47,389 nucleotides of DNA from Escherichia coli (GTDB lineage: Bacteria > Pseudomonadota > Gammaproteobacteria > Enterobacterales > Enterobacteriaceae), in the NCBI RefSeq assembly GCF_036507355.1, contig NZ_AP027879.1; one strand, 5' to 3'. The notes under the pieces are model-generated. The model had not been told where the DNA came from. It did not search any database and was given only the letters and a program-made list of their open reading frames with translations. Shown piece by piece: positions 7,470 through 47,389 of the stretch; position 1 is the stretch's first letter; each line of letters opens with the position of its first letter. The position numbers were made by a program, and so were the translations under genes.

Positions 7470-7484
7470 GTTGGAGTCATTACC

Positions 7485-20600: not shown

Positions 20601-20816
20601 GTGCGCCCATGCCGCATTGCGAAGCAAAAGATAATCGGATAAAATGTAGCAATTCATATTCGTAAGCGTGGAGTAATCAGATGGGAAATTCCAAGTCAGC
20701 AGACAAGTAAGCCGCAACAACCAGTATTGTTGTTGCGGCGCTCTGTAAGGCTAGTCTCATCTGATTGCTGACGAGCAGACGTCGCCCGGTATTCCTTAAT
20801 CGAGGGTTGATTCGTC

Positions 20817-22031: not shown

Positions 22032-22058
22032 CCGACGACTGGTAGCAGGCCCGCTCCG

Positions 22059-22364: not shown

Positions 22365-22369
22365 CGGGC

Positions 22370-24193: not shown

Positions 24194-24447
24194 GGCACTG
24201 TTGCAAATAGTCGGTGGTGATAAACTTATCATCCCCTTTTGCTGATGGAGCTGCACATGAACCCATTCAAAGGCCGGCATTTTCAGCGTGACATCATTCT
24301 GTGGGCCGTACGCTGGTACTGCAAATACGGCATCAGTTACCGTGAGCTGCAGGAGATGCTGGCTGAACGCGGAGTGAATGTCGATCACTCCACGATTTAC
24401 CGCTGGGTTCAGCGTTATGCGCCTGAAATGGAAAAACGGCTGCGCTG
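24194..24447 (+). mobile_element. IS26 fragment (first about 254 bp including IRL and tnp 5' end)
   Basis: Identical to the IS26 left end; interrupted by inverted complete IS26 copy c. Confidence 0.8.
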
Positions 24448-24448
24448 G

Positions 24449-27526: not shown

Positions 27527-28362
27527 TGTTCATGCCGCCTGTTTTTCCTGCTCATTGGCACGTTTCGCAACCTGTTCTCATTGCGGACACCTTTTCCAGC
27601 CTCGTTTGGAAAGTTTCATTGCCAGACGGGACTCCTGCAATCGTCAAGGGATTGAAACCTATAAAAGACATTGCTGATGAACTGCGCGGGGCCGACTATC
27701 TGGTATGGCGCAATGGGAGGGGAGCAGTCCGGTTGCTCGGTCGTGAGAACAATCTGATGTTGCTCGAATATGCCGGGGAGCGAATGCTCTCTCACATCGT
27801 TGCCGAGCACGGCGACTACCAGGCGACCGAAATTGCAGCGGAACTAATGGCGAAGCTGTATGCCGCATCTGAGGAACCCCTGCCTTCTGCCCTTCTCCCG
27901 ATCCGGGATCGCTTTGCAGCTTTGTTTCAGCGGGCGCGCGATGATCAAAACGCAGGTTGTCAAACTGACTACGTCCACGCGGCGATTATAGCCGATCAAA
28001 TGATGAGCAATGCCTCGGAACTGCGTGGGCTACATGGCGATCTGCATCATGAAAACATCATGTTCTCCAGTCGCGGCTGGCTGGTGATAGATCCCGTCGG
28101 TCTGGTCGGTGAAGTGGGCTTTGGCGCCGCCAATATGTTCTACGATCCGGCTGACAGAGACGACCTTTGTCTCGATCCTAGACGCATTGCACAGATGGCG
28201 GACGCATTCTCTCGTGCGCTGGACGTCGATCCGCGTCGCCTGCTCGACCAGGCGTACGCTTATGGGTGCCTTTCCGCAGCTTGGAACGCGGATGGAGAAG
28301 AGGAGCAACGCGATCTAGCTATCGCGGCCGCGATCAAGCAGGTGCGACAGACGTCATACTAG
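27526..28362 (+). CDS. strB: Aminoglycoside 6-phosphotransferase APH(6)-Id
   Basis: 278 aa from MFMPPVFPAHW; 1-bp overlap with the strA stop. Confidence 0.95.
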   Translation: MFMPPVFPAHWHVSQPVLIADTFSSLVWKVSLPDGTPAIVKGLKPIKDIADELRGADYLVWRNGRGAVRLLGRENNLMLLEYAGERMLSHIVAEHGDYQATEIAAELMAKLYAASEEPLPSALLPIRDRFAALFQRARDDQNAGCQTDYVHAAIIADQMMSNASELRGLHGDLHHENIMFSSRGWLVIDPVGLVGEVGFGAANMFYDPADRDDLCLDPRRIAQMADAFSRALDVDPRRLLDQAYAYGCLSAAWNADGEEEQRDLAIAAAIKQVRQTSY

Positions 28363-28387
28363 ATATCAAGCGACTTCTCCTATCCCC

Positions 28388-28468
28388 TGGGAACACATCA
28401 ATCTCACCGGAGAATATCGCTGGCCAAAGCCTTAGCGTAGGATTCCGCCCCTTCCCGCAAACGACCCC
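28388..28468. repeat. Tn5393-type 81-bp terminal inverted repeat downstream of strB
   Basis: Reverse complement begins GGGGTCGTTTGCGGGAAGGGG. Confidence 0.5.
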
Positions 28469-28717: not shown

Positions 28718-29032
28718 CTAGATCTATCTCATCTGCGCAAGGCAGAACGTGAAGACGGCCGCCCTGGACCTCGCCCGCGAGCGCCAGGCGCACGAGGCCG
28801 GCGCGCGGACCCGCGCCACGGCCCACGAGCGGACGCCGCAGCAGGAGCGCCAGAAGGCCGCCAGAGAGGCCGAGCGCGGCCGTGAGGCTTGGACGCTAGG
28901 GCAGGGCATGAAAAAGCCCGTAGCGGGCTGCTACGGGCGTCTGACGCGGTGGAAAGGGGGAGGGGATGTTGTCTACATGGCTCTGCTGTAGTGAGTGGGT
29001 TGCGCTCCGGCAGCGGTCCTGAGCGGTCCTGA

Positions 29033-29683
29033 TCAATCGTCACCCTTTCTCGGTCCTTCAACGTTCCTGACAACGAGCCTCCTTTTCGCCAATCCATCGA
29101 CAATCACCGCGAGTCCCTGCTCGAACGCTGCGTCCGGACGGGCTTCGTCGAAGGCGTCTATCGCGGCCCGCAACAGCGGCGAGAGCGGAGCCTGTTCAAC
29201 GGTGCCGCCGCGCTCGCCGGCATCGCTGTCGCCGGCCTGCTCCTCAAGCACGGCCCCAACAGTGAAGTAGCTGATTGTCATCAGCGCATTGACGGCGTCC
29301 CCGGCCGAAAAACCCGCCTCGCAGAGGAAGCGAAGCTGCGCGTCGGCCGTTTCCATCTGCGGTGCGCCCGGTCGCGTGCCGGAATGGATGCGCGCGCCAT
29401 CGCGGTAGGCGAGCAGCGCCTGCCTGAAGCTGCGGGCATTCCCGATCAGAAATGAGCGCCAGTCGTCGTCGGCTCTCGGCACCGAATGCGTATGATTCTC
29501 CGCCAGCATGGCTTCGGCCAGTGCGTCGAGCAGCGCCCGCTTGTTCCTGAAGTGCCAGTAAAGCGCCGGCTGCTGAACCCCCAACCGTTCCGCCAGTTTG
29601 CGTGTCGTCAGACCGTCTACGCCGACCTCGTTCAACAGGTCCAGGGCGGCACGGATCACTGTATTCGGCTGCAACTTTGTCAT
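29033..29683 (-). CDS. tetR: Tetracycline repressor TetR, class A (variant copy)
   Basis: 216 aa from MTKLQPNTVIRAALDLL; differs from the second copy at two residues. Confidence 0.95.
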   Translation of the reverse strand: MTKLQPNTVIRAALDLLNEVGVDGLTTRKLAERLGVQQPALYWHFRNKRALLDALAEAMLAENHTHSVPRADDDWRSFLIGNARSFRQALLAYRDGARIHSGTRPGAPQMETADAQLRFLCEAGFSAGDAVNALMTISYFTVGAVLEEQAGDSDAGERGGTVEQAPLSPLLRAAIDAFDEARPDAAFEQGLAVIVDGLAKRRLVVRNVEGPRKGDD

Positions 29684-29692
29684 GCTTGACAC

Positions 29693-29788
29693 TTTATCAC
29701 TGATAAATATAATATGTCCACCAACTTATCAGTGATAAAGAATCCGCGCGTTCAATCGGACCAGCGGAGGCTGGTCCGGAGGCCAGAC
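29693..29788. promoter_or_regulatory. tetR/tetA divergent promoter region with tet operator palindromes
   Basis: ACTTTATCACTGATAAA and CTTATCAGTGATAAAG between the divergent genes. Confidence 0.7.
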
Positions 29789-30988
29789 GTGAAACCCAAC
29801 AGACCCCTGATCGTAATTCTGAGCACTGTCGCGCTCGACGCTGTCGGCATCGGCCTGATTATGCCGGTGCTGCCGGGCCTCCTGCGCGATCTGGTTCACT
29901 CGAACGACGTCGCCGCCCACTATGGCATTCTGCTGGCGCTGTATGCGTTGATGCAATTTGCCTGCGCACCTGTGCTGGGTGCGCTGTCGGATCGTTTCGG
30001 GCGGCGGCCGGTCTTGCTCGTCTCGCTGGCCGGCGCTGCTGTCGACTACGCCATCATGGCGACGGCGCCTTTCCTTTGGGTTCTCTATATCGGGCGGATC
30101 GTGGCCGGCATCACCGGGGCGACTGGGGCGGTAGCCGGCGCTTATATTGCCGATATCACTGATGGCGATGAGCGCGCGCGGCACTTCGGCTTCATGAGCG
30201 CCTGTTTCGGGTTCGGGATGGTCGCGGGACCTGTGCTCGGTGGGCTGATGGGCGGTTTCTCCCCCCACGCTCCGTTCTTCGCCGCGGCAGCCTTGAACGG
30301 CCTCAATTTCCTGACGGGCTGTTTCCTTTTGCCGGAGTCGCACAAAGGCGAACGCCGGCCGTTACGCCGGGAGGCTCTCAACCCGCTCGCTTCGTTCCGG
30401 TGGGCCCGGGGCATGACCGTCGTCGCCGCCCTGATGGCGGTCTTCTTCATCATGCAACTTGTCGGACAGGTGCCGGCCGCGCTTTGGGTCATTTTCGGCG
30501 AGGATCGCTTTCACTGGGACGCGACCACGATCGGCATTTCGCTTGCCGCATTTGGCATTCTGCATTCACTCGCCCAGGCAATGATCACCGGCCCTGTAGC
30601 CGCCCGGCTCGGCGAAAGGCGGGCACTCATGCTCGGAATGATTGCCGACGGCACAGGCTACATCCTGCTTGCCTTCGCGACACGGGGATGGATGGCGTTC
30701 CCGATCATGGTCCTGCTTGCTTCGGGTGGCATCGGAATGCCGGCGCTGCAAGCAATGTTGTCCAGGCAGGTGGATGAGGAACGTCAGGGGCAGCTGCAAG
30801 GCTCACTGGCGGCGCTCACCAGCCTGACCTCGATCGTCGGACCCCTCCTCTTCACGGCGATCTATGCGGCTTCTATAACAACGTGGAACGGGTGGGCATG
30901 GATTGCAGGCGCTGCCCTCTACTTGCTCTGCCTGCCGGCGCTGCGTCGCGGGCTTTGGAGCGGCGCAGGGCAACGAGCCGATCGCTGA
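29789..30988 (+). CDS. tetA: Tetracycline efflux MFS pump TetA, class A (variant copy)
   Basis: 399 aa from GTG at VKPNRPLIVILSTVALDAVGIG; three aa differences from the second copy. Confidence 0.95.
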   Translation: MKPNRPLIVILSTVALDAVGIGLIMPVLPGLLRDLVHSNDVAAHYGILLALYALMQFACAPVLGALSDRFGRRPVLLVSLAGAAVDYAIMATAPFLWVLYIGRIVAGITGATGAVAGAYIADITDGDERARHFGFMSACFGFGMVAGPVLGGLMGGFSPHAPFFAAAALNGLNFLTGCFLLPESHKGERRPLRREALNPLASFRWARGMTVVAALMAVFFIMQLVGQVPAALWVIFGEDRFHWDATTIGISLAAFGILHSLAQAMITGPVAARLGERRALMLGMIADGTGYILLAFATRGWMAFPIMVLLASGGIGMPALQAMLSRQVDEERQGQLQGSLAALTSLTSIVGPLLFTAIYAASITTWNGWAWIAGAALYLLCLPALRRGLWSGAGQRADR

Positions 30989-31359
30989 TAGAGGTTTATA
31001 GCGGCTTCGTTCCCTTCCGCAACCGTCAGCATGATCTGCTCCACATGCTCGCGGCCATAGTCTATCACCGCCCGCAGCAGCATACCGGCGACCCCTCGGC
31101 CTCGCTGTTCGGGCTCCACGAAAACGCCGGACAGATGCGCCTTGTGAGCGTCCTTGGGGCCGTCCTCCTGTTTGAAGACCGACAGCCCAATGATCTCGCC
31201 GTCGATGTAGGCGCCGAATGCCACGGCATCTCGCAACCGTTCAGCGAACGCCTCCATGGGCTTTTTCTCCTCGTGCTCGTAAACGGACCCGAACATCTCT
31301 GGAGCTTTCTTCAGGGCCGACAATCGGATCTCGCCGAAATGCCTGCCGTTGCTAGACAT
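30989..31359 (-). pseudogene. GNAT-family N-acetyltransferase, 3'-truncated at the tetA boundary
   Basis: First about 123 codons GNAT-like (QRGRGVAGMLLRAVIDYGRE); frame continues into antisense tetA. Confidence 0.5.
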
Positions 31360-31364: not shown

Positions 31365-31847
31365 GCCAGTGCCCGTCACTCCCGTACTAACTGTCACGAA
31401 CCCCTGCAATAACTGTCACGCCCCCCTGCAATAACTGTCACGAACCCCTGCAATAACTGTCACGCCCCCAAACCTGCAAACCCAGCAGGGGCGGGGGCTG
31501 GCGGGGTGTTGGAAAAATCCATCCATGATTATCTAAGAATAATCCACTAGGCGCGGTTATCAGCGCCCTTGTGGGGCGCTGCTGCCCTTGCCCAATATGC
31601 CCGGCCAGAGGCCGGATAGCTGGTCTATTCGCTGCGCTAGGCTACACACCGCCCCACCGCTGCGCGGCAGGGGGAAAGGCGGGCAAAGCCCGCTAAACCC
31701 CACACCAAACCCCGCAGAAATACGCTGGAGCGCTTTTAGCCGCTTTAGCGGCCTTTCCCCCTACCCGAAGGGTGGGGGCGCGTGTGCAGCCCCGCAGGGC
31801 CTGTCTCGGTCGATCATTCAGCCCGGCTCATCCTTCTGGCGTGGCGG
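31365..31847. other. IncQ1 (RSF1010-type) oriV fragment with direct iterons, GC-rich and AT-rich segments
   Basis: Iterons CTGTCACGAACCCCTGCAATAA at about 31386-31470, then GC-rich block and AT-rich CCATCCATGATTATCTAAGAATAATCC; identification from recalled RSF1010 sequence. Confidence 0.55.
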
Positions 31848-32770
31848 ATGATAACGGCCAGCATGGCGTCCAGAACGTCCAATGCATCATCCAGCGCCAG
31901 CGTTTCCCATGCAAGGACAAAGGCAACCAGAACCGCCATCCTTTTCTGCGGTGACATCCTGGCAATATTGAACACCGAAGTCATACCAGCATAACGTGCG
32001 AGATTTTTCAGGCGCACAGCCGGGAGTGTACTCAGGTTTTCAGCATGCAGGCCAAAATCGTTCAGAGTTTTCCAGCGTTCAATTGCTTCATTAAACGCCG
32101 GACCACTGATGGTCACAGGGCCCTTTTTCAGTGATTCCAGTAAAGACAGGCGGCTGCAATCAGTTGGCCCCAGCAGCATCTCCAGCTGTGAACGCTGTTC
32201 GGCTGACGGTATCAGTGCCAGTTTGTTCCACAGGCGCAACGTCGCCTTTTCCCTTACCTCTGAAATCAACCGGGTCAGCGTAGTGGCTCCGGGGAGAATA
32301 ATACGATGTTGCATAAGCCACCCTGTCGCCAGATCGAAAAGCAGGCCAGGACGTTCGTTGCTTATCCAGCTCCGGGTATATAAAAGACGGGTAAGGCGAA
32401 ATGTCCAGGGCCAGGCAAATTCACGATACTGATAGTGCTGACGTATCAGCGCTGCATGCTCACGGCGGGTATTTTCCCTCTGACCGTATTCTGCAAGAAC
32501 GGTGATATCACGAATCCCGAGCTGTCTGGCGGTAAAATGCCGGACGCCGGAAGGAATATGATTCATATCGGTGAGGAAGGTGCCCAGAAAACGGACACAT
32601 CCAATTTGCAGGGCAATGCCCAGACGGTTGTGATCACCTCTGCTTTTTCCGATAAATTCCTTGTCTGCTTCATCAAGGTGAAAATATCGTGCCAGCTGAA
32701 GCTCATCCGGTTCACCGGTGAATCTGCCATAGCTTTCAGTCTGCTCAGTGGTCAGAAAGTCAACGGGCAT
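31848..32770 (-). pseudogene. tnpA: Tn2/Tn3 transposase TnpA, N-terminal about 307 codons only (3'-truncated)
   Basis: MPVDFLTTEQTESYGRFTGEPDELQLARYFHL...; frame runs into oriV-fragment sequence. Confidence 0.85.
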
Positions 32771-33491
<721 letters not shown>

Positions 33492-33603
33492 TACGCCTAT
33501 TTTTATAGGTTAATGTCATGATAATAATGGTTTCTTAGACGTCAGGTGGCACTTTTCGGGGAAATGTGCGCGGAACCCCTATTTGTTTATTTTTCTAAAT
33601 ACA

Positions 33604-33632
33604 TTCAAATATGTATCCGCTCATGAGACAAT
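33604..33632 (+). promoter_or_regulatory. blaTEM P3-type promoter (-35 TTCAAA, 17-bp spacer, -10 GACAAT)
   Basis: Hexamers located about 40 bp upstream of the blaTEM start. Confidence 0.5.
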
Positions 33633-33661
33633 AACCCTGGTAAATGCTTCAATAATATTGA

Positions 33662-34534
<873 letters not shown>

Positions 34535-34643
34535 CTGTCAGACCAAGTTTACTCATATATACTTTAGATTGATTTAAAACTTCATTTTTAATTTAAAAGG
34601 ATCTAGGTGAAGATCCTTTTTGATAATCTCATGACCAAAATCC

Positions 34644-34681
34644 CTTAACGTGAGTTTTCGTTCCACTGAGCGTCAGACCCC
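34644..34681. repeat. Tn3/Tn2 right 38-bp inverted repeat
   Basis: CTTAACGTGAGTTTTCGTTCCACTGAGCGTCAGACCCC. Confidence 0.85.
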
Positions 34682-34791
34682 TATGATTACCCTCTTAGTA
34701 ACAGTTCGAAAGATCCAGACCTAAGTCAAGTACGCCAACACAACTTCAGAGCAAGTATAGCATATTCATTTAGAAAGCTAAAAAAATAAAA

Positions 34792-35583
34792 CTAACCTAG
34801 GGCTTTGGATATTTTCAAGGCATCTGATAAAGACTTAACATCATGGGTGCGGAGATAATCTGCACCTTTTTTGTATGCATACATTTCTGCTGCAAGAGTT
34901 GGTGCTAAACGAGATTTCACATCGGTTCCAGTTATTTTACCTAAGAATGATTTCCGTGACACTGCAATCATTACTTGCAAATTAAAAGCTTCTTGAATTT
35001 CAGGGAAACGCTTCAAAACAAGAATAGATGTTTCTGGATTAGAGCCTAAAAAGAAGCCCATACCCGGATCAAGAATAATTCGTTCACGCTTTACACCAGC
35101 CTCAACTAAAGCAGCAATTCTTTCTTTAAAAAATTCCATCATGGAAGTAAAAACCTCTTCCGGATTCGTTTCAACTTTAGTAGCTGCACCAATTCGCTGA
35201 ACGGAGTGCATCAACACAAGTTTGCAATCTGACTTTGCCAAGCCTGAATAAATCTCAGGATAAGGAAAACCTTGAATATCATTAATAAAATCAACCTTTT
35301 GTTCTATGCAAAAACTCTGAACCTCAGGTTTAAATGTATCAACAGAAATAGAAATGCCTTTTTCTTTTAAAGCCTTAATGACAGGTTTGAGTCTTTTGAT
35401 TTCTTCCACAACGCCCACTTCAGTTGTATCAGGATTACTGGAAGCGGCTCCCAAATCAATCACATCTGCTCCATCTTCAACCAAATGCAGAGCATGCTCA
35501 ATTGCCTTATCTGTATCTAAATAAAGTCCTCCATCGGAAAAACTATCGGTGGTTATATTTACGATTCCAAAAATCTTGCTCAT
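34792..35583 (-). CDS. sul3: Sulfonamide-resistant dihydropteroate synthase Sul3
   Basis: 263 aa, AT-rich, MSKIFGIVNITTDSFSDGG; flanked by SDR gene, MFS fragment and IS26. Confidence 0.85.
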   Translation of the reverse strand: MSKIFGIVNITTDSFSDGGLYLDTDKAIEHALHLVEDGADVIDLGAASSNPDTTEVGVVEEIKRLKPVIKALKEKGISISVDTFKPEVQSFCIEQKVDFINDIQGFPYPEIYSGLAKSDCKLVLMHSVQRIGAATKVETNPEEVFTSMMEFFKERIAALVEAGVKRERIILDPGMGFFLGSNPETSILVLKRFPEIQEAFNLQVMIAVSRKSFLGKITGTDVKSRLAPTLAAEMYAYKKGADYLRTHDVKSLSDALKISKALG

Positions 35584-36051
35584 ATCATTTTGCTTTGATT
35601 ACAAAAGTAGCATTTATCTTAATTGACTAATTATCACTTACGCAAATTGACACATTTTCCCTATCTTTGCAGCCTAATTTTTTTGTTTTAATTCATTATG
35701 AAAACTGATAGGAACTGTCATTTCGAGTTTTTCGCGGTTTTGGGTCAAAATTCGGTTTTTTCCCCGAACTACGACTGTTTTCGCACCCCGAACAACTAAT
35801 CCAATCAGAATTTTCCGGCAACGCCGACTCCAAGAAGTGTAATTCCAGTCTATTTCTGCCGTCAACCCCTGATTCGCGTTAATGCGACAAAGCTCAAACA
35901 CATAACTCCCCCACGAAGCCATATAAACTCCGATTTCGAGGTGTTATCCTGTTCCGCATAAACTTCGTTTTTGGGTATTATACCTACACCAAAGCAAGAA
36001 GATTATGGGTCCAAACTTCATTTGTATATTTTGCAAACAAATATCTGCCTG

Positions 36052-36297
36052 TCATATCTGTCGGAGTGTGGTGATACTCCTTTGCATTAAAAATGCGCTG
36101 ATAAAAGGTAGTTCAGCAAAAGGCGAAACGCCAATAAATATATCTATAACCGGTTTCGCCCGTTGATTGGGTATCGCCGTGCTTCCGATATGTTCAATGG
36201 CTACGGCATGAGAACCGAAAAAATGGAGCAATTTTATTTTCTCTTCTTCAAAATTCTTTGTCCAATCCGGGTTATATTCCATAATTTCAATTTTCAT
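36052..36297 (-). pseudogene. GrpB-like (UPF0157) N-terminal fragment
   Basis: 81-aa ORF with GSTAIP motif; much shorter than full-length family members. Confidence 0.3.
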
Positions 36298-36334
36298 GAT
36301 AGTTTCGTCCTTGCCTCAAAAACCATGTTTGGTA

Positions 36335-37198
36335 TTATACTCCATATCTCTCCGGTGCAGGAATAGCCTTTTCTGATGCACGGCTAACAGCTTCCCATTC
36401 TTCCCAGGTAGCCATCCGTGCTTTTAAGGTATCCATCGCCAAATCGTATACCATGCTGCCAAGGATAAGCCTCAAAGGCGGATTATTGCTGGCTACTAAT
36501 TTCATAAGGGCTTCCGCTGCCAAGGAAGGATCACTATCGACCGAATCTTCGGAATACTGTTTCGCCAGCTCATCGCGCAGTGTACCGTATGAATCTAATG
36601 GATTGCTGTAACTCATCGAAGTGTATAAATCTGTCCAATATCCTCCTGGTTCCACCATAGTGAGTTTCACTCCGAAATGTTCCGCTTCTTTTGCTAAGGC
36701 TTCACTCATTCCTTCCAGCGCAAATTTACTTGCACTGTAAATACCAGACATCGGACCCGAGATAATAGCGCCAATGCTTGTAATCTGTATGATATGTCCA
36801 GAACGCTGCGACCTCAAATAGGGCATCACTGCCTGACAAACCCAAAGAGCTCCAAAAAAGTTTGTGTCCATTAGTTTCCGAGCATCGGATTCGTTTAGTT
36901 CTTCAATCATACCCATAGTCATGATACCCGCATTATTAACAACAATATCAAGCCTACCGAAATGTTTAACTGCTGTTTCAACCGTAGAAAAAACAGCCTC
37001 CCTATCTGTAACATCGAGGTTTAATGGCAGTAAGCTCTCTTGATATGTTTCTTCTAGCTTCGCCAAATTATCGATAGTCCTTGCAACTGCAACAACTTTA
37101 TCCCCGGCTTTCAAGGCGGCGCATGTAAAAGCATAGCCAAGCCCCTTGCTTGCTCCGGTAATAAACCATACTCTTTTATTTTCGCTATTAGGTATCAT
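36335..37198 (-). CDS. Short-chain dehydrogenase/reductase (SDR)
   Basis: 287 aa; TGASKGLG Rossmann motif and YSASK catalytic motif. Confidence 0.75.
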   Translation of the reverse strand: MIPNSENKRVWFITGASKGLGYAFTCAALKAGDKVVAVARTIDNLAKLEETYQESLLPLNLDVTDREAVFSTVETAVKHFGRLDIVVNNAGIMTMGMIEELNESDARKLMDTNFFGALWVCQAVMPYLRSQRSGHIIQITSIGAIISGPMSGIYSASKFALEGMSEALAKEAEHFGVKLTMVEPGGYWTDLYTSMSYSNPLDSYGTLRDELAKQYSEDSVDSDPSLAAEALMKLVASNNPPLRLILGSMVYDLAMDTLKARMATWEEWEAVSRASEKAIPAPERYGV

Positions 37199-37326
37199 AG
37201 ATATTCTCCTTTAGGCTATTATAGAAAGATTATTATAAGCGAAATTAATACCGTTAAACGCCATGAGCCCGACAATTTTGAGCACTTTGTTTTGTACTCC
37301 CAGAAGCTCACTACTACAAATTATCA

Positions 37327-37595
37327 TCAACCCGGTCCTTTTTTCAGTCCACTTGCGGTTTTCATTGTTACTTTGTCATAGCGTCGTGTCAGAATGCGGC
37401 AGAGAACAGCGTTTACTATCAACGCAACACCAGACCAGAAAAACCATGTATTAACACCTATAACCTCAACAACCGGACCTGCAACAAGTAAGCCTATCGG
37501 CATAGAAAGAGTCATGGCGGTCATCAAAAGGGAAAACACCTTGCCCATCATTTCAGGGGCAATGCTTTCTTGAACATAAGCCATAACAGGAACAT
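37327..37595 (-). pseudogene. mefB: MFS efflux pump C-terminal fragment (likely mef(B)), 5'-truncated by IS26
   Basis: Hydrophobic TM-like C-terminus; frame opens at the IS26 boundary. Confidence 0.45.
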
Positions 37596-38415
37596 GGCAC
37601 TGTTGCAAAGTTAGCGATGAGGCAGCCTTTTGTCTTATTCAAAGGCCTTACATTTCAAAAACTCTGCTTACCAGGCGCATTTCGCCCAGGGGATCACCAT
37701 AATAAAATGCTGAGGCCTGGCCTTTGCGTAGTGCACGCATCACCTCAATACCTTTGATGGTGGCGTAAGCCGTCTTCATGGATTTAAATCCCAGCGTGGC
37801 GCCGATTATCCGTTTCAGTTTGCCATGATCGCATTCAATCACGTTGTTCCGGTACTTAATCTGTCGGTGTTCAACGTCAGACGGGCACCGGCCTTCGCGT
37901 TTGAGCAGAGCAAGCGCGCGACCATAGGCGGGCGCTTTATCCGTGTTGATGAATCGCGGGATCTGCCACTTCTTCACGTTGTTGAGGATTTTACCCAGAA
38001 ACCGGTATGCAGCTTTGCTGTTACGACGGGAGGAGAGATAAAAATCGACAGTGCGGCCCCGGCTGTCGACGGCCCGGTACAGATACGCCCAGCGGCCATT
38101 GACCTTCACGTAGGTTTCATCCATGTGCCACGGGCAAAGATCGGAAGGGTTACGCCAGTACCAGCGCAGCCGTTTTTCCATTTCAGGCGCATAACGCTGA
38201 ACCCAGCGGTAAATCGTGGAGTGATCGACATTCACTCCGCGTTCAGCCAGCATCTCCTGCAGCTCACGGTAACTGATGCCGTATTTGCAGTACCAGCGTA
38301 CGGCCCACAGAATGATGTCACGCTGAAAATGCCGGCCTTTGAATGGGTTCATGTGCAGCTCCATCAGCAAAAGGGGATGATAAGTTTATCACCACCGACT
38401 ATTTGCAACAGTGCC
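37596..38415 (-). mobile_element. IS26, complete (copy d)
   Basis: 14-bp IRs, 820 bp. Confidence 0.95.
37648..38352 (-). CDS. tnp26: IS26 transposase Tnp26, G at position 184
   Basis: [10 protein letters not shown]. Confidence 0.95.
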   Translation of the reverse strand: MNPFKGRHFQRDIILWAVRWYCKYGISYRELQEMLAERGVNVDHSTIYRWVQRYAPEMEKRLRWYWRNPSDLCPWHMDETYVKVNGRWAYLYRAVDSRGRTVDFYLSSRRNSKAAYRFLGKILNNVKKWQIPRFINTDKAPAYGRALALLKREGRCPSDVEHRQIKYRNNVIECDHGKLKRIIGATLGFKSMKTAYATIKGIEVMRALRKGQASAFYYGDPLGEMRLVSRVFEM

Positions 38416-38598
38416 GTCCTGCGAATATGTGAGTTTTGACCTAATGAGCCACAAAAACTCATTTTCGCCCACGATAATTTTTCTACTTCCTTTCTTTGGA
38501 ATGCTCATTTCAATATTCACATAACGTCGCTATCAATCGCGGAAAAGGCGTAGTGCGCGAAGCGAACGAAGCTTTTTGCCGTCGATTGCATAGCTTTG
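38416..38598 (-). other. Region downstream of the dfrA cassette, expected to hold its attC; truncated by IS26
   Basis: Position between dfrA stop and IS26; attC not delimited. Confidence 0.3.
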
Positions 38599-39081
38599 TT
38601 AACCCTTTTTCCAAATTTGATAGCAATAGTTAATGTTTGAAGTAAAGTGTTGCTCAAAAACAACTTCGAAGGTATTTGGAATACTCGGGAAGAAAACATC
38701 CCCCTCTGGCTCGATGTCGATCGTCGATAAGTGGAGCGTAGAGGCCATGGGTAATGTTTCTCGGTAAATTTCTCCGCCACCAGACACTATAACGTGACCG
38801 GTGAATTCAGCTAGCCTGTCCATGGCCTCTTCGATTGACTGAAATACAACTACATTGTCATCATTTGATGTCCAACCTGAGCGGGTAACGACCGCGTATT
38901 TCCTATTGGGGAGTGCGCCCATAGATTCAAACGTCTTGCGACCCACCAGAAGCCACTGATTGTAGGTCAATGCTTTAAAAAGTAGCTGCTCCCCTTTCGC
39001 GGACCAGGGTATGTCTGGACCGCAACCAATCACGCCGTTTTTCGCTTTCGCAGCCATCAATGATACTTTCAAGGTTCTCAT
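38599..39081 (-). CDS. dfrA14: Trimethoprim-resistant dihydrofolate reductase DfrA (dfrA14/dfrA5 group)
   Basis: 160-aa ORF; type B DHFR; allele assignment from recalled sequence is tentative. Confidence 0.8.
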
Positions 39082-39227
39082 CCTGGGTTAACTTTGTTTT
39101 AGGGCGACTGCCCTGCTGCGTAACATCGTTGCTGCTCCATAACATCAAACATCGACCCACGGCGTAACGCGCTTGCTGCTTGGATGCCCGAGGCATAGAC
39201 TGTACAAAAAAACAGTCATAACAAGCC
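39082..39227. promoter_or_regulatory. attI1 recombination site region of a class 1 integron
   Basis: GCCCTAAAACAAAGTTAACC between intI1 start and the first cassette. Confidence 0.6.
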
Positions 39228-40233
39228 ATGAAAACCGCCACTGCGCCGTTACCACCGCTGCGTTCGGTCAAGGTTCTGGACCAGTTGCGTGAGCGCATAC
39301 GCTACTTGCATTACAGTTTACGAACCGAACAGGCTTATGTCCACTGGGTTCGTGCCTTCATCCGTTTCCACGGTGTGCGTCACCCGGCAACCTTGGGCAG
39401 CAGCGAAGTCGAGGCATTTCTGTCCTGGCTGGCGAACGAGCGCAAGGTTTCGGTCTCCACGCATCGTCAGGCATTGGCGGCCTTGCTGTTCTTCTACGGC
39501 AAGGTGCTGTGCACGGATCTGCCCTGGCTTCAGGAGATCGGAAGACCTCGGCCGTCGCGGCGCTTGCCGGTGGTGCTGACCCCGGATGAAGTGGTTCGCA
39601 TCCTCGGTTTTCTGGAAGGCGAGCATCGTTTGTTCGCCCAGCTTCTGTATGGAACGGGCATGCGGATCAGTGAGGGTTTGCAACTGCGGGTCAAGGATCT
39701 GGATTTCGATCACGGCACGATCATCGTGCGGGAGGGCAAGGGCTCCAAGGATCGGGCCTTGATGTTACCCGAGAGCTTGGCACCCAGCCTGCGCGAGCAG
39801 CTGTCGCGTGCACGGGCATGGTGGCTGAAGGACCAGGCCGAGGGCCGCAGCGGCGTTGCGCTTCCCGACGCCCTTGAGCGGAAGTATCCGCGCGCCGGGC
39901 ATTCCTGGCCGTGGTTCTGGGTTTTTGCGCAGCACACGCATTCGACCGATCCACGGAGCGGTGTCGTGCGTCGCCATCACATGTATGACCAGACCTTTCA
40001 GCGCGCCTTCAAACGTGCCGTAGAACAAGCAGGCATCACGAAGCCCGCCACACCGCACACCCTCCGCCACTCGTTCGCGACGGCCTTGCTCCGCAGCGGT
40101 TACGACATTCGAACCGTGCAGGATCTGCTCGGCCATTCCGACGTCTCTACGACGATGATTTACACGCATGTGCTGAAAGTTGGCGGTGCCGGAGTGCGCT
40201 CACCGCTTGATGCGCTGCCGCCCCTCACTAGTG
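39228..40233 (+). CDS. intI1: Class 1 integron integrase IntI1, last two codons and stop replaced by IS26
   Basis: [27 protein letters not shown]...; native frame ends at LDALPPLTS where IS26 begins. Confidence 0.9.
39315..39343 (-). promoter_or_regulatory. Integron cassette promoter Pc, PcH1-type (-35 TGGACA, -10 TAAACT)
   Basis: Hexamers on the cassette strand inside the intI1 5' coding region, 17-bp spacing. Confidence 0.6.
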
Positions 40234-41053
40234 GGCACTGTTGCAAAGTTAGCGATGAGGCAGCCTTTTGTCTTATTCAAAGGCCTTACATTTCAAAAAC
40301 TCTGCTTACCAGGCGCATTTCGCCCAGGGGATCACCATAATAAAATGCTGAGGCCTGGCCTTTGCGTAGTGCACGCATCACCTCAATACCTTTGATGGTG
40401 GCGTAAGCCGTCTTCATGGATTTAAATCCCAGCGTGGCGCCGATTATCCGTTTCAGTTTGCCATGATCGCATTCAATCACGTTGTTCCGGTACTTAATCT
40501 GTCGGTGTTCAACGTCAGACGGGCACCGGCCTTCGCGTTTGAGCAGAGCAAGCGCGCGACCATAGGCGGGCGCTTTATCCGTGTTGATGAATCGCGGGAT
40601 CTGCCACTTCTTCACGTTGTTGAGGATTTTACCCAGAAACCGGTATGCAGCTTTGCTGTTACGACGGGAGGAGAGATAAAAATCGACAGTGCGGCCCCGG
40701 CTGTCGACGGCCCGGTACAGATACGCCCAGCGGCCATTGACCTTCACGTAGGTTTCATCCATGTGCCACGGGCAAAGATCGGAAGGGTTACGCCAGTACC
40801 AGCGCAGCCGTTTTTCCATTTCAGGCGCATAACGCTGAACCCAGCGGTAAATCGTGGAGTGATCGACATTCACTCCGCGTTCAGCCAGCATCTCCTGCAG
40901 CTCACGGTAACTGATGCCGTATTTGCAGTACCAGCGTACGGCCCACAGAATGATGTCACGCTGAAAATGCCGGCCTTTGAATGGGTTCATGTGCAGCTCC
41001 ATCAGCAAAAGGGGATGATAAGTTTATCACCACCGACTATTTGCAACAGTGCC
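40234..41053 (-). mobile_element. IS26, complete (copy e)
   Basis: 14-bp IRs, 820 bp. Confidence 0.95.
40286..40990 (-). CDS. tnp26: IS26 transposase Tnp26, G at position 184
   Basis: Same protein as copy d. Confidence 0.95.
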
Positions 41054-41869
41054 CCGTTCAGCACCCGCGTGGTGAATGTCGGCGTCCGCGATTCCACCTA
41101 TGTGCTCGACGGCCTGCTGTACCACGAGTCCGACCTGCGGATCGAGGAGCACTACACCGACACGGCCGGCTTCACCGATCACGTCTTTGCCCTGATGCAC
41201 CTGCTAGGCTTCCGCTTCGCGCCGCGCATCCGCGACCTCGGCGAAACCAAGCTGTACGTGCCGCAGGGCGTGCAAGCCTACCCGACGTTGCGCCCGCTGA
41301 TCGGCGGCACCCTGAACATCAAGCACGTGCGTGCCCACTGGGACGACATCCTGCGCCTGGCCAGCTCGATCAAGCAGGGCACCGTCACCGCCTCGCTGAT
41401 GCTGCGCAAGCTCGGCAGCTACCCGCGCCAGAACGGACTGGCCGTGGCCCTGCGCGAGCTGGGCCGGATCGAGCGCACGCTGTTCATCCTGGACTGGCTG
41501 CAAAGTGTTGAACTGCGCCGCCGCGTGCATGCCGGCCTGAACAAAGGTGAGGCGCGCAACTCGCTGGCCAGGGCGGTGTTCTTCAACCGCCTTGGGGAAA
41601 TCAGGGATCGGAGCTTCGAGCAGCAGCGCTACCGGGCCAGCGGCCTCAACCTGGTGACGGCGGCTATCGTGCTGTGGAACACGGTGTACCTGGAACGCGC
41701 CACCCAGGGGTTGGTCGAGGCCGGCAAGCCGGTGGACGGCGAGCTGCTGCAATTCCTGTCGCCGCTGGGCTGGGAGCACATCAACCTAACCGGCGATTAC
41801 GTCTGGCGGCAGAGCCGCAGACTGGAAGACGGGAAGTTTCGGCCCTTACGGATGCCCGGAAAACCTTAG
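41054..41869 (+). pseudogene. tnpA: Tn1721-type TnpA, 3' 271 codons only (5'-truncated by IS26)
   Basis: Identical to the C-terminal part of the fragment at 45595-47357; ends in the Tn1721 IR. Confidence 0.8.
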
Positions 41870-41902
41870 CGTACGATTTTTTCCGAATTCTGCGGGCTCC
41901 CC
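41865..41902. repeat. Tn1721 38-bp inverted repeat (internal IR preceding the tet module)
   Basis: Reverse complement GGGGAGCCCGCAGAATTCGGAAAAAATCGTACGCTAAG. Confidence 0.8.
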
Positions 41903-42200
41903 TATCTCATCTGCGCAAGGCAGAACGTGAAGACGGCCGCCCTGGACCTCGCCCGCGAGCGCCAGGCGCACGAGGCCGGCGCGCGGACCCGCGCCACGGC
42001 CCACGAGCGGACGCCGCAGCAGGAGCGCCAGAAGGCCGCCAGAGAGGCCGAGCGCGGCCGTGAGGCTTGGACGCTAGGGCAGGGCATGAAAAAGCCCGTA
42101 GCGGGCTGCTACGGGCGTCTGACGCGGTGGAAAGGGGGAGGGGATGTTGTCTACATGGCTCTGCTGTAGTGAGTGGGTTGCGCTCCGGCAGCGGTCCTGA

Positions 42201-42851
42201 TCAATCGTCACCCTTTCTCGGTCCTTCAACGTTCCTGACAACGAGCCTCCTTTTCGCCAATCCATCGACAATCACCGCGAGTCCCTGCTCGAACGCTGCG
42301 TCCGGATCGGCTTCGTCGAAGGCGTCTATCGCGGCCCGCAACAGCGGCGAGAGCGGAGCCTGTTCAACGGTGCCGCCGCGCTCGCCGGCATCGCTGTCGC
42401 CGGCCTGCTCCTCAAGCACGGCCCCAACAGTGAAGTAGCTGATTGTCATCAGCGCATTGACGGCGTCCCCGGCCGAAAAACCCGCCTCGCAGAGGAAGCG
42501 AAGCTGCGCGTCGGCCGTTTCCATCTGCGGTGCGCCCGGTCGCGTGCCGGCATGGATGCGCGCGCCATCGCGGTAGGCGAGCAGCGCCTGCCTGAAGCTG
42601 CGGGCATTCCCGATCAGAAATGAGCGCCAGTCGTCGTCGGCTCTCGGCACCGAATGCGTATGATTCTCCGCCAGCATGGCTTCGGCCAGTGCGTCGAGCA
42701 GCGCCCGCTTGTTCCTGAAGTGCCAGTAAAGCGCCGGCTGCTGAACCCCCAACCGTTCCGCCAGTTTGCGTGTCGTCAGACCGTCTACGCCGACCTCGTT
42801 CAACAGGTCCAGGGCGGCACGGATCACTGTATTCGGCTGCAACTTTGTCAT
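42201..42851 (-). CDS. tetR: Tetracycline repressor TetR, class A (Tn1721-type copy)
   Basis: 216 aa from MTKLQ. Confidence 0.95.
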   Translation of the reverse strand: MTKLQPNTVIRAALDLLNEVGVDGLTTRKLAERLGVQQPALYWHFRNKRALLDALAEAMLAENHTHSVPRADDDWRSFLIGNARSFRQALLAYRDGARIHAGTRPGAPQMETADAQLRFLCEAGFSAGDAVNALMTISYFTVGAVLEEQAGDSDAGERGGTVEQAPLSPLLRAAIDAFDEADPDAAFEQGLAVIVDGLAKRRLVVRNVEGPRKGDD

Positions 42852-42860
42852 GCTTGACAC

Positions 42861-42956
42861 TTTATCACTGATAAACATAATATGTCCACCAACTTATCAG
42901 TGATAAAGAATCCGCGCGTTCAATCGGACCAGCGGAGGCTGGTCCGGAGGCCAGAC
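42861..42956. promoter_or_regulatory. tetR/tetA divergent promoter and operators
   Basis: Same operator palindromes as in copy 1. Confidence 0.7.
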
Positions 42957-44156
42957 GTGAAACCCAACAGACCCCTGATCGTAATTCTGAGCACTGTCGC
43001 GCTCGACGCTGTCGGCATCGGCCTGATTATGCCGGTGCTGCCGGGCCTCCTGCGCGATCTGGTTCACTCGAACGACGTCACCGCCCACTATGGCATTCTG
43101 CTGGCGCTGTATGCGTTGATGCAATTTGCCTGCGCACCTGTGCTGGGCGCGCTGTCGGATCGTTTCGGGCGGCGGCCGGTCTTGCTCGTCTCGCTGGCCG
43201 GCGCTGCTGTCGACTACGCCATCATGGCGACGACGCCTTTCCTTTGGGTTCTCTATATCGGGCGGATCGTGGCCGGCATCACCGGGGCGACTGGGGCGGT
43301 AGCCGGCGCTTATATTGCCGATATCACTGATGGCGATGAGCGCGCGCGGCACTTCGGCTTCATGAGCGCCTGTTTCGGGTTCGGGATGGTCGCGGGACCT
43401 GTGCTCGGTGGGCTGATGGGCGGTTTCTCCCCCCACGCTCCGTTCTTCGCCGCGGCAGCCTTGAACGGCCTCAATTTCCTGACGGGCTGTTTCCTTTTGC
43501 CGGAGTCGCACAAAGGCGAACGCCGGCCGTTACGCCGGGAGGCTCTCAACCCGCTCGCTTCGTTCCGGTGGGCCCGGGGCATGACCGTCGTCGCCGCCCT
43601 GATGGCGGTCTTCTTCATCATGCAACTTGTCGGACAGGTGCCGGCCGCGCTTTGGGTCATTTTCGGCGAGGATCGCTTTCACTGGGACGCGACCACGATC
43701 GGCATTTCGCTTGCCGCATTTGGCATTCTGCATTCACTCGCCCAGGCAATGATCACCGGCCCTGTAGCCGCCCGGCTCGGCGAAAGGCGGGCACTCATGC
43801 TCGGAATGATTGCCGACGGCACAGGCTACATCCTGCTTGCCTTCGCGACACGGGGATGGATGGCGTTCCCGATCATGGTCCTGCTTGCTTCGGGTGGCAT
43901 CGGAATGCCGGCGCTGCAAGCAATGTTGTCCAGGCAGGTGGATGAGGAACGTCAGGGGCAGCTGCAAGGCTCACTGGCGGCGCTCACCAGCCTGACCTCG
44001 ATCGTCGGACCCCTCCTCTTCACGGCGATCTATGCGGCTTCTATAACAACGTGGAACGGGTGGGCATGGATTGCAAGCGCTGCCCTCTACTTGCTCTGCC
44101 TGCCGGCGCTGCGTCGCGGGCTTTGGAGCGGCGCAGGGCAACGAGCCGATCGCTGA
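42957..44156 (+). CDS. tetA: Tetracycline efflux MFS pump TetA, class A (Tn1721-type copy)
   Basis: 399 aa from GTG. Confidence 0.95.
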   Translation: MKPNRPLIVILSTVALDAVGIGLIMPVLPGLLRDLVHSNDVTAHYGILLALYALMQFACAPVLGALSDRFGRRPVLLVSLAGAAVDYAIMATTPFLWVLYIGRIVAGITGATGAVAGAYIADITDGDERARHFGFMSACFGFGMVAGPVLGGLMGGFSPHAPFFAAAALNGLNFLTGCFLLPESHKGERRPLRREALNPLASFRWARGMTVVAALMAVFFIMQLVGQVPAALWVIFGEDRFHWDATTIGISLAAFGILHSLAQAMITGPVAARLGERRALMLGMIADGTGYILLAFATRGWMAFPIMVLLASGGIGMPALQAMLSRQVDEERQGQLQGSLAALTSLTSIVGPLLFTAIYAASITTWNGWAWIASAALYLLCLPALRRGLWSGAGQRADR

Positions 44157-44187
44157 TCGTGGAAACGATAGGCCTATGCCATGCGGG

Positions 44188-45072
44188 TCAAGGCGACTTC
44201 CGGCAAGCTATACGCGCCCTAGGAGTGCGGTTGGAACGTTGGCCCAGCCAGATACTCCCGATCACGAGCAGGACGCCGATGATTTGAAGCGCACTCAGCG
44301 TCTGATCCAAGAACAACCATCCTAGCAACACGGCGGTCCCCGGGCTGAGAAAGCCCAGTAAGGAAACAACTGTAGGTTCGAGTCGCGAGATCCCCCGGAA
44401 CCAAAGGAAGTAGGTTAAACCCGCTCCGATCAGGCCGAGCCACGCCAGGCCGAGAACATTGGTTCCTGTAGGCATCGGGATTGGCGGATCAAACACTAAA
44501 GCTACTGGAACGAGCAGAAGTCCTCCGGCCGCCAGTTGCCAGGCGGTAAAGGTGAGCAGAGGCACGGGAGGTTGCCACTTGCGGGTCAGCACGGTTCCGA
44601 ACGCCATGGAAACCGCCCCCGCCAGGCCCGCTGCGACGCCGACAGGATCTAGCGCTGCGTTTGGTGTCAACACCAACAGCGCCACGCCCGCAGTTCCGCA
44701 AATAGCCCCCAGGACCGCCATCAATCGTATCGGGCTACCTAGCAGAGCGGCAGAGATGAACACGACCATCAGCGGCTGCACAGCGCCTACCGTCGCCGCG
44801 ACCCCGCCCGGCAGGCGGTAGACCGAAATAAACAACAAGCTCCAGAATAGCGAAATATTAAGTGCGCCGAGGATGAAGATGCGCATCCACCAGATTCCCG
44901 TTGGAATCTGTCGGACGATCATCACGAGCAATAAACCCGCCGGCAACGCCCGCAGCATCGCGACCGTCATCGGTGAGAAGTTCGGCAGGTATTGGGTGGT
45001 GACAATGTAGGTGCTGCCCCAAATGGCAGGTGCTATCGCTGTGAACAATAAATCGGGCGTGCGTAATGACAT
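44188..45072 (-). CDS. pecM: EamA/DMT-family transporter (PecM-like)
   Basis: 294-aa, 10-TM protein in the position pecM occupies downstream of tetA in Tn1721. Confidence 0.85.
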   Translation of the reverse strand: MSLRTPDLLFTAIAPAIWGSTYIVTTQYLPNFSPMTVAMLRALPAGLLLVMIVRQIPTGIWWMRIFILGALNISLFWSLLFISVYRLPGGVAATVGAVQPLMVVFISAALLGSPIRLMAVLGAICGTAGVALLVLTPNAALDPVGVAAGLAGAVSMAFGTVLTRKWQPPVPLLTFTAWQLAAGGLLLVPVALVFDPPIPMPTGTNVLGLAWLGLIGAGLTYFLWFRGISRLEPTVVSLLGFLSPGTAVLLGWLFLDQTLSALQIIGVLLVIGSIWLGQRSNRTPRARIACRKSP

Positions 45073-45209
45073 GCGATTACAAGACCTCCGCTACGGCGAT
45101 GGGTTTTTGAGAGTTGCAGGCGCCGCGATGACCGCACCCTGACTTGGACTGGCCCTGCCTCGCACCAATCCACCTGCGGCTATGGCCGCGATCATGCGAG
45201 GCCCGAAAA

Positions 45210-45480
45210 TTACACGACCTGTACACGTCCGCCGAACCCGGAACGCAACAGAGCTTCGTGGGCATCCCGATCCGGGTCGTAGCAGCAGTCCTGGACCAAA
45301 CGCACGTCGTAGTCCGCATCACTAGCCCAGGCGACGCTTGAAAGAACAACGCCGGTGGTGCTTATCCCGGCCATGACAAGCGTGCTTACGCCGCGCGTCC
45401 GAAGGTCGGCGTCGAGCGCCGTGCCATAAAAGACGCTGGCTCGCGGACATGCATAGAAAAGGTCGCCCCGTTCGATCGCA
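45210..45480 (-). pseudogene. Isochorismatase-family hydrolase C-terminal fragment
   Basis: Only the C-terminal part of the ORF is family-like (LVMAGISTTGVVLSS...DCCYDPDRDAHEALL). Confidence 0.3.
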
Positions 45481-45594
45481 AGCCCTTCGACGGGCAGACC
45501 GGTGCGAAATCGTCCGCTCGGGAGATACGGTGAGATTTGGCGATTCGTCGCCGGCGGCGCATGTTCATACTCTTCGCCGAGCGAAAAGTTGGGG

Positions 45595-47357
45595 AACAGC
45601 ACGGGCCGGCCGCGCAAGGCGTGCTGGCAGCCGTGCAGACCCTGCGTGAGATGAACGCCGACAACCTGCGCAAGGTGCCGGCCGATGCACCCACGGCCTT
45701 CATCAAGCCGCGCTGGAAGCCGCTGGTGATCACCCCGGAAGGCCTCGACCGGAAATTCTACGAAATCTGCGCCCTGTCCGAGCTGAAGAACGCCCTGCGC
45801 TCCGGCGACATCTGGGTCAAGGGCTCGCGGCAGTTCCGCGACTTCGACGACTACCTGCTGCCGGCCGAGAAGTTCGCCGCACTCAAGCGCGAGCAGGCCC
45901 TGCCCCTGGCGATCAACCCGAACAGCGACCAGTACCTGGAAGAGCGTTTGCAGCTGCTGGACGAGCAGTTGGCCACCGTCACCCGCCTGGCCAAGGACAA
46001 CGAGCTGCCCGATGCCATCCTCACCGAGTCAGGGCTGAAAATCACCCCGCTGGATGCGGCGGTGCCGGATCGGGCGCAGGCGCTGATCGACCAAACCAGC
46101 CAGTTACTGCCGCGCATCAAGATCACCGAACTGCTGATGGACGTGGACGACTGGACGGGCTTCAGCCGCCACTTCACCCACTTGAAGGACGGGGCCGAGG
46201 CCAAAGACAGGACGTTGCTGCTGTCCGCAATCCTCGGTGATGCGATCAACCTCGGGCTGACCAAGATGGCCGAGTCGAGCCCCGGCCTGACCTACGCCAA
46301 GCTGTCCTGGCTGCAAGCCTGGCACATCCGCGACGAAACCTATTCGGCGGCCTTGGCCGAGCTGGTCAACCACCAGTATCGCCACGCCTTTGCCGCCCAC
46401 TGGGGCGACGGCACGACCTCATCCTCCGATGGCCAGCGCTTCCGCGCGGGTGGCCGGGGCGAGAGCACCGGGCACGTCAACCCGAAGTACGGTAGCGAGC
46501 CGGGACGGCTGTTCTATACCCATATCTCCGACCAGTACGCGCCGTTCAGCACCCGCGTGGTGAATGTCGGCGTCCGCGATTCCACCTATGTGCTCGACGG
46601 CCTGCTGTACCACGAGTCCGACCTGCGGATCGAGGAGCACTACACCGACACGGCCGGCTTCACCGATCACGTCTTTGCCCTGATGCACCTGCTAGGCTTC
46701 CGCTTCGCGCCGCGCATCCGCGACCTCGGCGAAACCAAGCTGTACGTGCCGCAGGGCGTGCAAGCCTACCCGACGTTGCGCCCGCTGATCGGCGGCACCC
46801 TGAACATCAAGCACGTGCGTGCCCACTGGGACGACATCCTGCGCCTGGCCAGCTCGATCAAGCAGGGCACCGTCACCGCCTCGCTGATGCTGCGCAAGCT
46901 CGGCAGCTACCCGCGCCAGAACGGACTGGCCGTGGCCCTGCGCGAGCTGGGCCGGATCGAGCGCACGCTGTTCATCCTGGACTGGCTGCAAAGTGTTGAA
47001 CTGCGCCGCCGCGTGCATGCCGGCCTGAACAAAGGTGAGGCGCGCAACTCGCTGGCCAGGGCGGTGTTCTTCAACCGCCTTGGGGAAATCAGGGATCGGA
47101 GCTTCGAGCAGCAGCGCTACCGGGCCAGCGGCCTCAACCTGGTGACGGCGGCTATCGTGCTGTGGAACACGGTGTACCTGGAACGCGCCACCCAGGGGTT
47201 GGTCGAGGCCGGCAAGCCGGTGGACGGCGAGCTGCTGCAATTCCTGTCGCCGCTGGGCTGGGAGCACATCAACCTAACCGGCGATTACGTCTGGCGGCAG
47301 AGCCGCAGACTGGAAGACGGGAAGTTTCGGCCCTTACGGATGCCCGGAAAACCTTAG
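45595..47357 (+). pseudogene. tnpA: Tn1721-type TnpA, 3' portion (the tnpA' remnant of Tn1721)
   Basis: About 590 C-terminal codons of a Tn3-family transposase ending in the Tn1721 IR. Confidence 0.8.
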
Positions 47358-47389
47358 CGTACGATTTTTTCCGAATTCTGCGGGCTCCC
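47353..47389. repeat. Tn1721 right inverted repeat, cut one base short by the window end
   Basis: CTTAGCGTACGATTTTTTCCGAATTCTGCGGGCTCCC. Confidence 0.8.

Follow-up and report, generated by a model that had tools for sequence, protein, structure and literature searches.

The IS26-truncated Tn1721 tet(A) module of a probable IncX1 plasmid in Escherichia coli and its 849-bp direct repeats

The stretch of Escherichia coli DNA analysed here, contig NZ_AP027879.1 of assembly GCF_036507355.1 (47,389 bp, called the window below), ends in a tetracycline resistance module, tetR(A)-tet(A)-pecM, which lies between two directly oriented copies of the 3' end of tnpA, the transposase gene of the transposon Tn1721. 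The locus raises the question of how much of Tn1721 is present, whether the repeat pair is the native one, and whether the module can still move or change in number. The best explanation, held with high confidence, is that the module is a Tn1721 tet remnant cut by the insertion sequence IS26 on a probable circular IncX1 plasmid, immobile as a Tn3-family element and rearranging through its 849-bp repeats.

The repeat pair and the missing half of Tn1721

Base-by-base comparison across the window at an offset of 5,488 gave no mismatch over 848 bp in direct orientation (41054-41901 against 46542-47389). The original prediction had placed identical segments of about 850 bp, in the same orientation, at 41054-41902 and 46542-47389; these coordinates, 849 and 848 bp long, match the sequence exactly, and alignment, where any non-identity would have come to light, disclosed none. 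Leftward the identity stops at 41053 against 46541, 41053 being the final base of an IS26 copy, and rightward it is bounded solely by the end of the window. Each copy consists of the 3' end of tnpA and the 38-bp terminal inverted repeat (IR) of Tn1721. The IR, GGGGAGCCCGCAGAATTCGGAAAAAATCGTACGCTAAG, is intact on the minus strand at 41865-41902 as an exact match (0 expected by chance, 100 shuffles). The downstream IR, IRRII, occupies 47353-47389 and is one base short because the window ends there. The absent C is base 1 of the window, so that each repeat copy is 849 bp when the window is read as a circle. This refines the earlier description, for the right-hand IR is whole only once the window is closed into a circle.

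In related plasmids the sequence runs on from the last base of the window to its first. The join 47389 to 1 matches the circular IncX1 plasmid pKFS-D29_2 (CP125008.1) over 3,106 nucleotides (nt) with 1 mismatch, and pCD90-1-2 at 100% over 7.3 kilobases (kb). Because of this colinearity the window is, as far as can be judged from sequence, probably a complete circular IncX1 plasmid of 47,389 bp, in which base 1 falls on the last base of IRRII.

The references for comparison with Tn1721 were plasmid-borne copies. One plasmid carries Tn1722 alone, mcp-tnpR-tnpA (NZ_CP049349.1), and the other carries mcp-tnpR-tnpA-IRRI-orf-tetR-tet(A)-pecM-truncated tnpA in one piece (NZ_OZ040491.1). The window is colinear with the latter over 41051-46645 at 99.89%, with 6 differences in 5,595 nt. 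The internal duplication in NZ_OZ040491.1 begins at tnpA nt 1212 (self-repeat 7501 = 12989), which corresponds to window position 45602, and thousands of records with a full-length tnpA match the window only from 45602-45605 onward. As the start is the same in this plasmid and in the other records, the native direct repeat of Tn1721 is 1,789 bp. The downstream copy in the window is whole, and the upstream copy retains 849 bp because IS26 cuts it at tnpA nt 2152. The original description of the pair as normal Tn1721 architecture therefore stands for the arrangement, which is colinear with plasmid-borne Tn1721, but not for the length of the repeat, the native duplication being 1,789 bp and not about 850 bp. 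Tn1722 in NZ_OZ040491.1 is 5,640 bp, which together with the 5,488-bp spacing of the window makes 11,128 bp; the length of Tn1721 quoted from AB366441 is 11,128 bp (PMC4899885).

The truncation of the upstream copy by IS26, also predicted, could be located exactly. The right end of the IS26 at 40234-41053 abuts tnpA nt 2152 (codon 718), which is the left edge of the Tn1721 remnant. The further statement that only the tet half of Tn1721 is present agrees with the searches for the left half. IRL, mcp, res, tnpR and tnpA nt 1-1211 have no blastn match in the window, and in a blastn comparison of NZ_OZ040491.1 positions 3500-8440 with the window only the stretch of tnpA nt 1212-2151 matches, in the downstream copy. 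IRL (GGGGGAACCGCAG..., taken from the two reference plasmids) differs from IRR at three positions and has no match in the window even with 8 substitutions allowed. A tnpR gene at 32898-33491 has no blastn match to the Tn1721 tnpR region; it adjoins a separate Tn3-family tnpA fragment and blaTEM. Of the three 38-bp repeats of a complete Tn1721 the window thus has IRRI and IRRII, with IRL not found, and it has none of mcp/orfI, res, tnpR and an intact 988-amino-acid tnpA. The tet region is present as tetR(A)-tet(A)-pecM, with IRRI on one side and a partial tnpA on the other.

The module resembles Tn1721 (X61367 / AB366441, 11,128-11,139 bp; Tn3 family, Tn21 subgroup) in the order IRRI-orf-tetR(A)-tet(A)-pecM-hydrolase remnant-partial tnpA-IRRII and in the 5,488-bp spacing. 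It differs in that IRL, mcp (orfI), res, tnpR and tnpA nt 1-2151 are replaced by IS26, and in having a direct repeat shortened from 1,789 to 849 bp. What remains is 6,337 bp of Tn1721, nt 4792-11128 counted from IRL. Composites of Tn3-derived miniature elements (TIME) with tet(A) (PMC13367494) were considered as another identity and rejected, the flanks here being direct tnpA fragments of 849 and 1,789 bp and not short inverse TIMEs.

Proposed rearrangement through the repeats and competing explanations

On the preferred explanation IS26 has eliminated all of Tn1721 that preceded tnpA nt 2152, so that 849 bp of the native 1,789-bp duplication are still shared by the two copies. The remnant is presumably unable to transpose as a Tn3-family element, because its IRs have the same orientation, IRL, res and tnpR are absent and no intact tnpA is present; the part for the N-terminal third is missing from both tnpA fragments. 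Homologous recombination would nevertheless find a good substrate in the two 849-bp copies and could rearrange the module. An intramolecular crossover would release a 5,488-bp circle with the tet unit and one repeat, and IS26-849 bp-IR-backbone would stay behind. Tandem arrays with a higher tet(A) dosage would arise if sister molecules exchanged unequally or if the circle was taken up again. All three products would be made by recombination of the RecA type. The IS26 beside the module may offer a second, independent route for moving it.

The predicted product junctions were constructed and then searched for in public plasmid records. The collapsed product, in which IS26, the 849 bp and the IR are followed by the same IncX1 backbone (IS26-849 bp-IR-TATTAGCC), is found as one contiguous 1,249-nt match at 99.9-100% in six plasmids, and eight further plasmids have an analogous collapsed structure with another IS26 cut. 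Plasmid pCD90-1-2 (NZ_CP050049.1) matches the window at 31830-38415, 40234-41905 and 1-7301 at 99.94-100%, and lacks exactly the 5,488-bp tet unit and a 2,638-bp IS26-dfrA-intI1 unit. Plasmid p35ZF15-2-1 has a conjugative IncX1 backbone with only IS26 and the 849-bp scar on it. The amplification junction, which joins the pecM side, 1,789 bp and the IR to the left end of the tet region (TATCTCATC), is present in eleven records, and NZ_CP083867.1 contains at least 5 head-to-tail tet units. Apart from 1 mismatch, the 5,488-bp circular record NZ_CP079890.1 equals window 41054-46541 in circularly permuted form, and NZ_AP023431.1 (5,498 bp) has the same circle junction. Judged by these matches the repeats look recombinationally active, all three predicted products being present in public plasmid records.

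The two small circular records consist solely of the Tn1721 tet unit and one tnpA repeat. A replication gene is absent from NZ_CP079890.1 and likewise from NZ_AP023431.1, and both are either excised circles or collapsed tandem arrays and have probably been mislabelled as plasmids. It is unlikely, though the two records suggest it, that the 5,488-bp unit is a real circle without a replicon, acting as a translocatable unit independent of insertion sequences and re-entering plasmids by homologous recombination via a Tn1721/Tn1722 tnpA stump. If it were, this would account for the occurrence of the same IncX1 scar, IS26-849 bp-IR, both with and without the tet module.

Several points weigh against rearrangement through the repeats. 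The 5,488-bp and 5,498-bp "plasmids" have no replicon and may be assembler renderings of tandem arrays, and tandem arrays in long-read assemblies can be miscounted. Identity to the unit is no more than 99.2-99.6% for the copies in NZ_CP083867.1, a shortfall that points to read errors, and the IS26 at the head of this array has the other common cut point, with about 1,550 bp of tnpA remaining in place of 849 bp. The window itself holds a single unit and no rearrangement. A part played by RecA is an inference, as is any direction of change towards loss or gain of the tet unit.

A different source of the same variation would be IS26 itself, the module being an IS26-based mobile unit (a translocatable unit or pseudo-compound transposon), the tnpA repeats inert and the relatives without tet the result of adjacent deletion by IS26. 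An IS26 does abut the module, and the five full copies and one 255-bp stump in the window, none with a target duplication, are typical of IS26 reshuffling. The 2,638-bp IS26-dfrA-intI1 unit is present or absent among close relatives, and amplified IS26 translocatable units with this tet module have been reported (bioRxiv 10.64898/2026.03.06.710075). A rightward adjacent deletion would, however, destroy the junction of IS26 with tnpA nt 2152, and the relatives without tet keep both this junction and that of the IR with the backbone, with one 849-bp copy between them. The 5,488-bp circular record contains no IS26. No IS26 lies between 41054 and the end of the window; the next directly oriented copy, at 12689, is found across the whole replicon, beyond the IncX1 replication and partition genes. 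The module is thus not enclosed in an IS26-bounded transposon, as a pseudo-compound transposon would have it between direct IS26 copies with no replicon between. This explanation is accordingly improbable.

Rearrangement through a repeat pair inherited from Tn1721 is also to be set against two explanations for the pair itself. Two separate insertions of Tn1722/Tn1721 could have come to flank the tet region on this plasmid, both copies ending in a complete IR and the outer end of IRRI being the precise start of the tet region. Such insertions probably gave rise to Tn1721 itself in the distant past. The breakpoint at 45602 and the 5,488-bp spacing are, however, the same in a Tn1721-bearing plasmid and in thousands of records, so the structure was inherited ready-made and not assembled here, and independent insertions on this plasmid are very improbable. 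The least credible alternative, with hardly any probability left to it, is an assembly artefact in which a contig end was collapsed or duplicated. The second copy does stop exactly where the window stops, with one base of the IR lacking, but more than 2,400 independent plasmid records have the arrangement (at most 172 have the identical IS26 junction), and the two ends of the window close up without a break, like the corresponding stretch of a related circular plasmid.

Distribution and earlier descriptions

The complete series IS26-tnpA stump-IRRI-tetR-tet(A)-pecM-partial tnpA-IRRII is present in the window as a 7,156-bp segment. At least 2,417 PLSDB records cover this segment to at least 80%, many of them 100% identical (for example NZ_MW077913.1), in hosts that include Escherichia, Klebsiella, Salmonella and other genera. 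The exact junction of IS26 with tnpA nt 2152 is found in at most 172 records, an upper bound as some of the matches are two joined pieces. In another frequent lineage IS26 cuts about 700 bp further upstream. No record in PLSDB or among complete E. coli genomes covers at least 80% of the whole window.

The layout of the IS26-truncated Tn1721 tet module on multiresistance plasmids has been described (PMC4899885), and IS26-truncated tnpA-tetR-tetA-pecM-truncated tnpA is known from pEK499 and from amplified translocatable units (bioRxiv 10.64898/2026.03.06.710075). The window shares the layout IS26-truncated tnpA-tetR-tet(A)-pecM-truncated tnpA-IR with the modules of pEK499, R1215 and IncX1 resistance plasmids; it is unlike part of them in the cut point of IS26, which differs between lineages and is at nt 2152 here. 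Tandem amplification of the Tn1721 tet region goes back to 1979, as cited in PMC4899885 (Schmitt, Bernhard & Mattes 1979) and in PMC13367494 (Mattes et al. 1979). The substrate of recombination is alike in that a tet unit lies between direct tnpA repeats, and unlike in that the repeat is shortened to 849 bp and the window itself has a single unit. The module is already known and is a textbook case of a Tn1721 tet region truncated by IS26, carried by an IncX1 multiresistance plasmid.

Repeat-mediated amplification having been known since 1979, no open question is advanced, and the value is practical, in annotation and surveillance. The tet(A) copy is part of an immobilised Tn1721 remnant and its copy number can still change. 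The 849-bp repeats, a second tet(A) 13 kb away and the IS26 copies are hazards for short-read assembly and for estimates of gene dosage. Set beside the near-identical IncX1 plasmids, the window would be a clear case from nature of a resistance module lost, gained and amplified through repeats.

The module in detail and its surroundings on the plasmid

The coordinates of the module are given in the table.

Table. Parts of the Tn1721 remnant and the adjoining IS26, with positions in the window.
Feature	Position	Strand	Remarks
IS26, complete, 820 bp	40234-41053	-	Transposase on minus strand; identical to 37596-38415; annotated in relatives as IS6-like IS26 family transposase
Upstream repeat copy	41054-41902	+	Last 816 nt of tnpA (codons 718-988, stop 41867-41869), overlapping the 38-bp IRRI at 41865-41902
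Small open reading frame (ORF) of 80 amino acids between IRRI and tetR	41927-42169	+	"Transposase" in relatives (WP_000844627.1)
tetR(A), tetracycline-responsive repressor	42201-42851	-	NF010319 TetR, 304.5 bits against a cut-off of 265
Divergent tetR/tetA control region	42860-42908		Two 15-nt palindromic operator-like sites, CTTTATCACTGATAA and TTATCAGTGATAAAG; perfect inverted repeat found
tet(A), class A tetracycline efflux MFS transporter, 399 amino acids	42957-44156	+	NF012193 Tet(A), 888 bits against a cut-off of 840
pecM, EamA/DMT-family transporter	44188-45072	-	EamA family in relatives; TIGR00950 match below the curated cut-off
Isochorismatase-family hydrolase gene remnant	45210-45601	-	Partial profile matches only; cysteine hydrolase in relatives
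Downstream copy, full native duplication	45602-47389 (+ base 1)	+	tnpA nt 1212-2967 and IRRII, 1,789 bp
Last base (C) of IRRII in the circular reading	1-1	+	End-to-start join matches pKFS-D29_2 and pCD90-1-2

The IS26 next to the remnant has terminal repeats GGCACTGTTGCAAA at both ends. It is flanked by CACTAGTG and CCGTTCAG, with no 8-bp target duplication. The upstream tnpA stump of 271 amino acids corresponds to positions 703-954 of the 954 positions of the Tn3-family transposase profile, and the downstream tnpA ORF to positions 384-954. A 468-amino-acid ORF at 40463-41869 was considered as an IS26-tnpA fusion gene and rejected. Its first part runs antisense through IS26 and only the last 271 amino acids match the transposase profile; the ORF is a by-product of the junction and not a plausible gene. 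The last 848 bp of the downstream copy (46542-47389) are the second repeat copy, and the hydrolase remnant reaches the exact start of the tnpA duplication. No NCBIfam family was matched by the small ORF at 41927-42169.

The family assignments from profile matches accord with how identical segments of public plasmids are annotated. A tetR gene of 216 amino acids (651 nt) is annotated at the equivalent position in relatives, and Tet(A) has 2 amino acid differences from the allele in NZ_OZ040491.1. Efflux by Tet(A) under the control of TetR is a classical system with established regulation. The two palindromic sites of the control region are presumed, from what is known of the Tet repressor, to be TetR operators. 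TetR would repress the divergent tetR and tet(A) promoters at these two operators, and tetracycline would release TetR so that the Tet(A) efflux pump is made.

The remnant lies at the edge of a multiresistance region. The window from 1 to about 11.9 kb is IncX1 backbone, with genes for a resolvase, a partition ATPase, a replication initiator and relE/parE, and with IS1 and IS903-like insertions. After about 11.9 kb the mosaic begins with a partial strB, followed by IS26, ISKpn19, qnrS1 and a Tn3-family tnpA fragment. It continues with IS26, a relaxase remnant, floR, a lysR fragment and ISCR2, then IS26, sul2, strA and strB. The second tetR-tet(A) comes next, with another Tn3-family tnpA fragment, tnpR and blaTEM. 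The last part comprises sul3, an SDR gene and a mef(B) fragment (annotation of relatives), then IS26, a dfrA cassette and a truncated intI1, and finally IS26 with the Tn1721 remnant.

The second tetR-tet(A) fragment, at 28724-30989, is related to Tn1721 and adds to the earlier description of the locus. It lies 13,178 bp upstream of 41902-44157 in the same orientation and is 99.2% identical to it, with 8 single-nucleotide differences and a 10-bp insertion or deletion at 29012-29021. The left edge is exactly the outer end of IRRI, and on the right the fragment includes 1 nt after the tet(A) stop codon; it follows sul2-strA-strB and has neither an IR nor pecM. Three residues (42, 93 and 374) distinguish the two TetA proteins.

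An 8-bp target duplication was sought around each IS26 copy in the window and none was found. The 19902-24193 segment, which comprises the relaxase remnant, floR, the lysR fragment and ISCR2, starts and ends with the same 8 bp, GTTTATTC. It sits between IS26 at 19082-19901 and the 255-bp IS26 stump at 24194-24448, and the stump is itself cut by an oppositely oriented IS26 at 24449-25268. The arrangement at 19082-25268 looks like a circular molecule with one IS26 that was incorporated through IS26. At 37596-41053 two identical IS26 copies bracket 1,818 bp with the dfrA cassette and intI1, the latter cut by IS26 at its last codons. This 2,638-bp unit is absent from the otherwise near-identical pCD90-1-2, as it would be if an IS26 translocatable unit had been gained or lost. 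An 818-bp 3' fragment of strB (aph(6)-Id) occurs twice, at 11871-12688 and 27651-28468, in inverted orientation and with 99.4% identity, and one copy abuts the IS26 at 12689.

The IncX1 backbone begins at base 2 (TATTAGCC...). Its first five bases, TATTA at 2-6, form the 5-bp flank of IRRII, the only flank that can be read since the IRL end is lost. On the opposite strand TATTA reads TAATA, the sequence reported as the target duplication of MITESen1 composites in IncX1-X2 plasmids (PMC13367494). A GC-rich tandem array of a 37-bp unit (14.5 copies, 94% match, consensus AAGGTGGGCGGATTCCCACACGGCACCGGCGCGCGGC) occupies 7835-8370, between IS1 and an IS903-like element in a backbone that is otherwise AT-rich, and is unannotated in relatives. 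The IS903-like (IS5-family) copies at 8862-9797 and 10937-11872 are direct repeats of 95.7% identity, and the repeated segment of the second copy ends at 11872, where the strB fragment begins.

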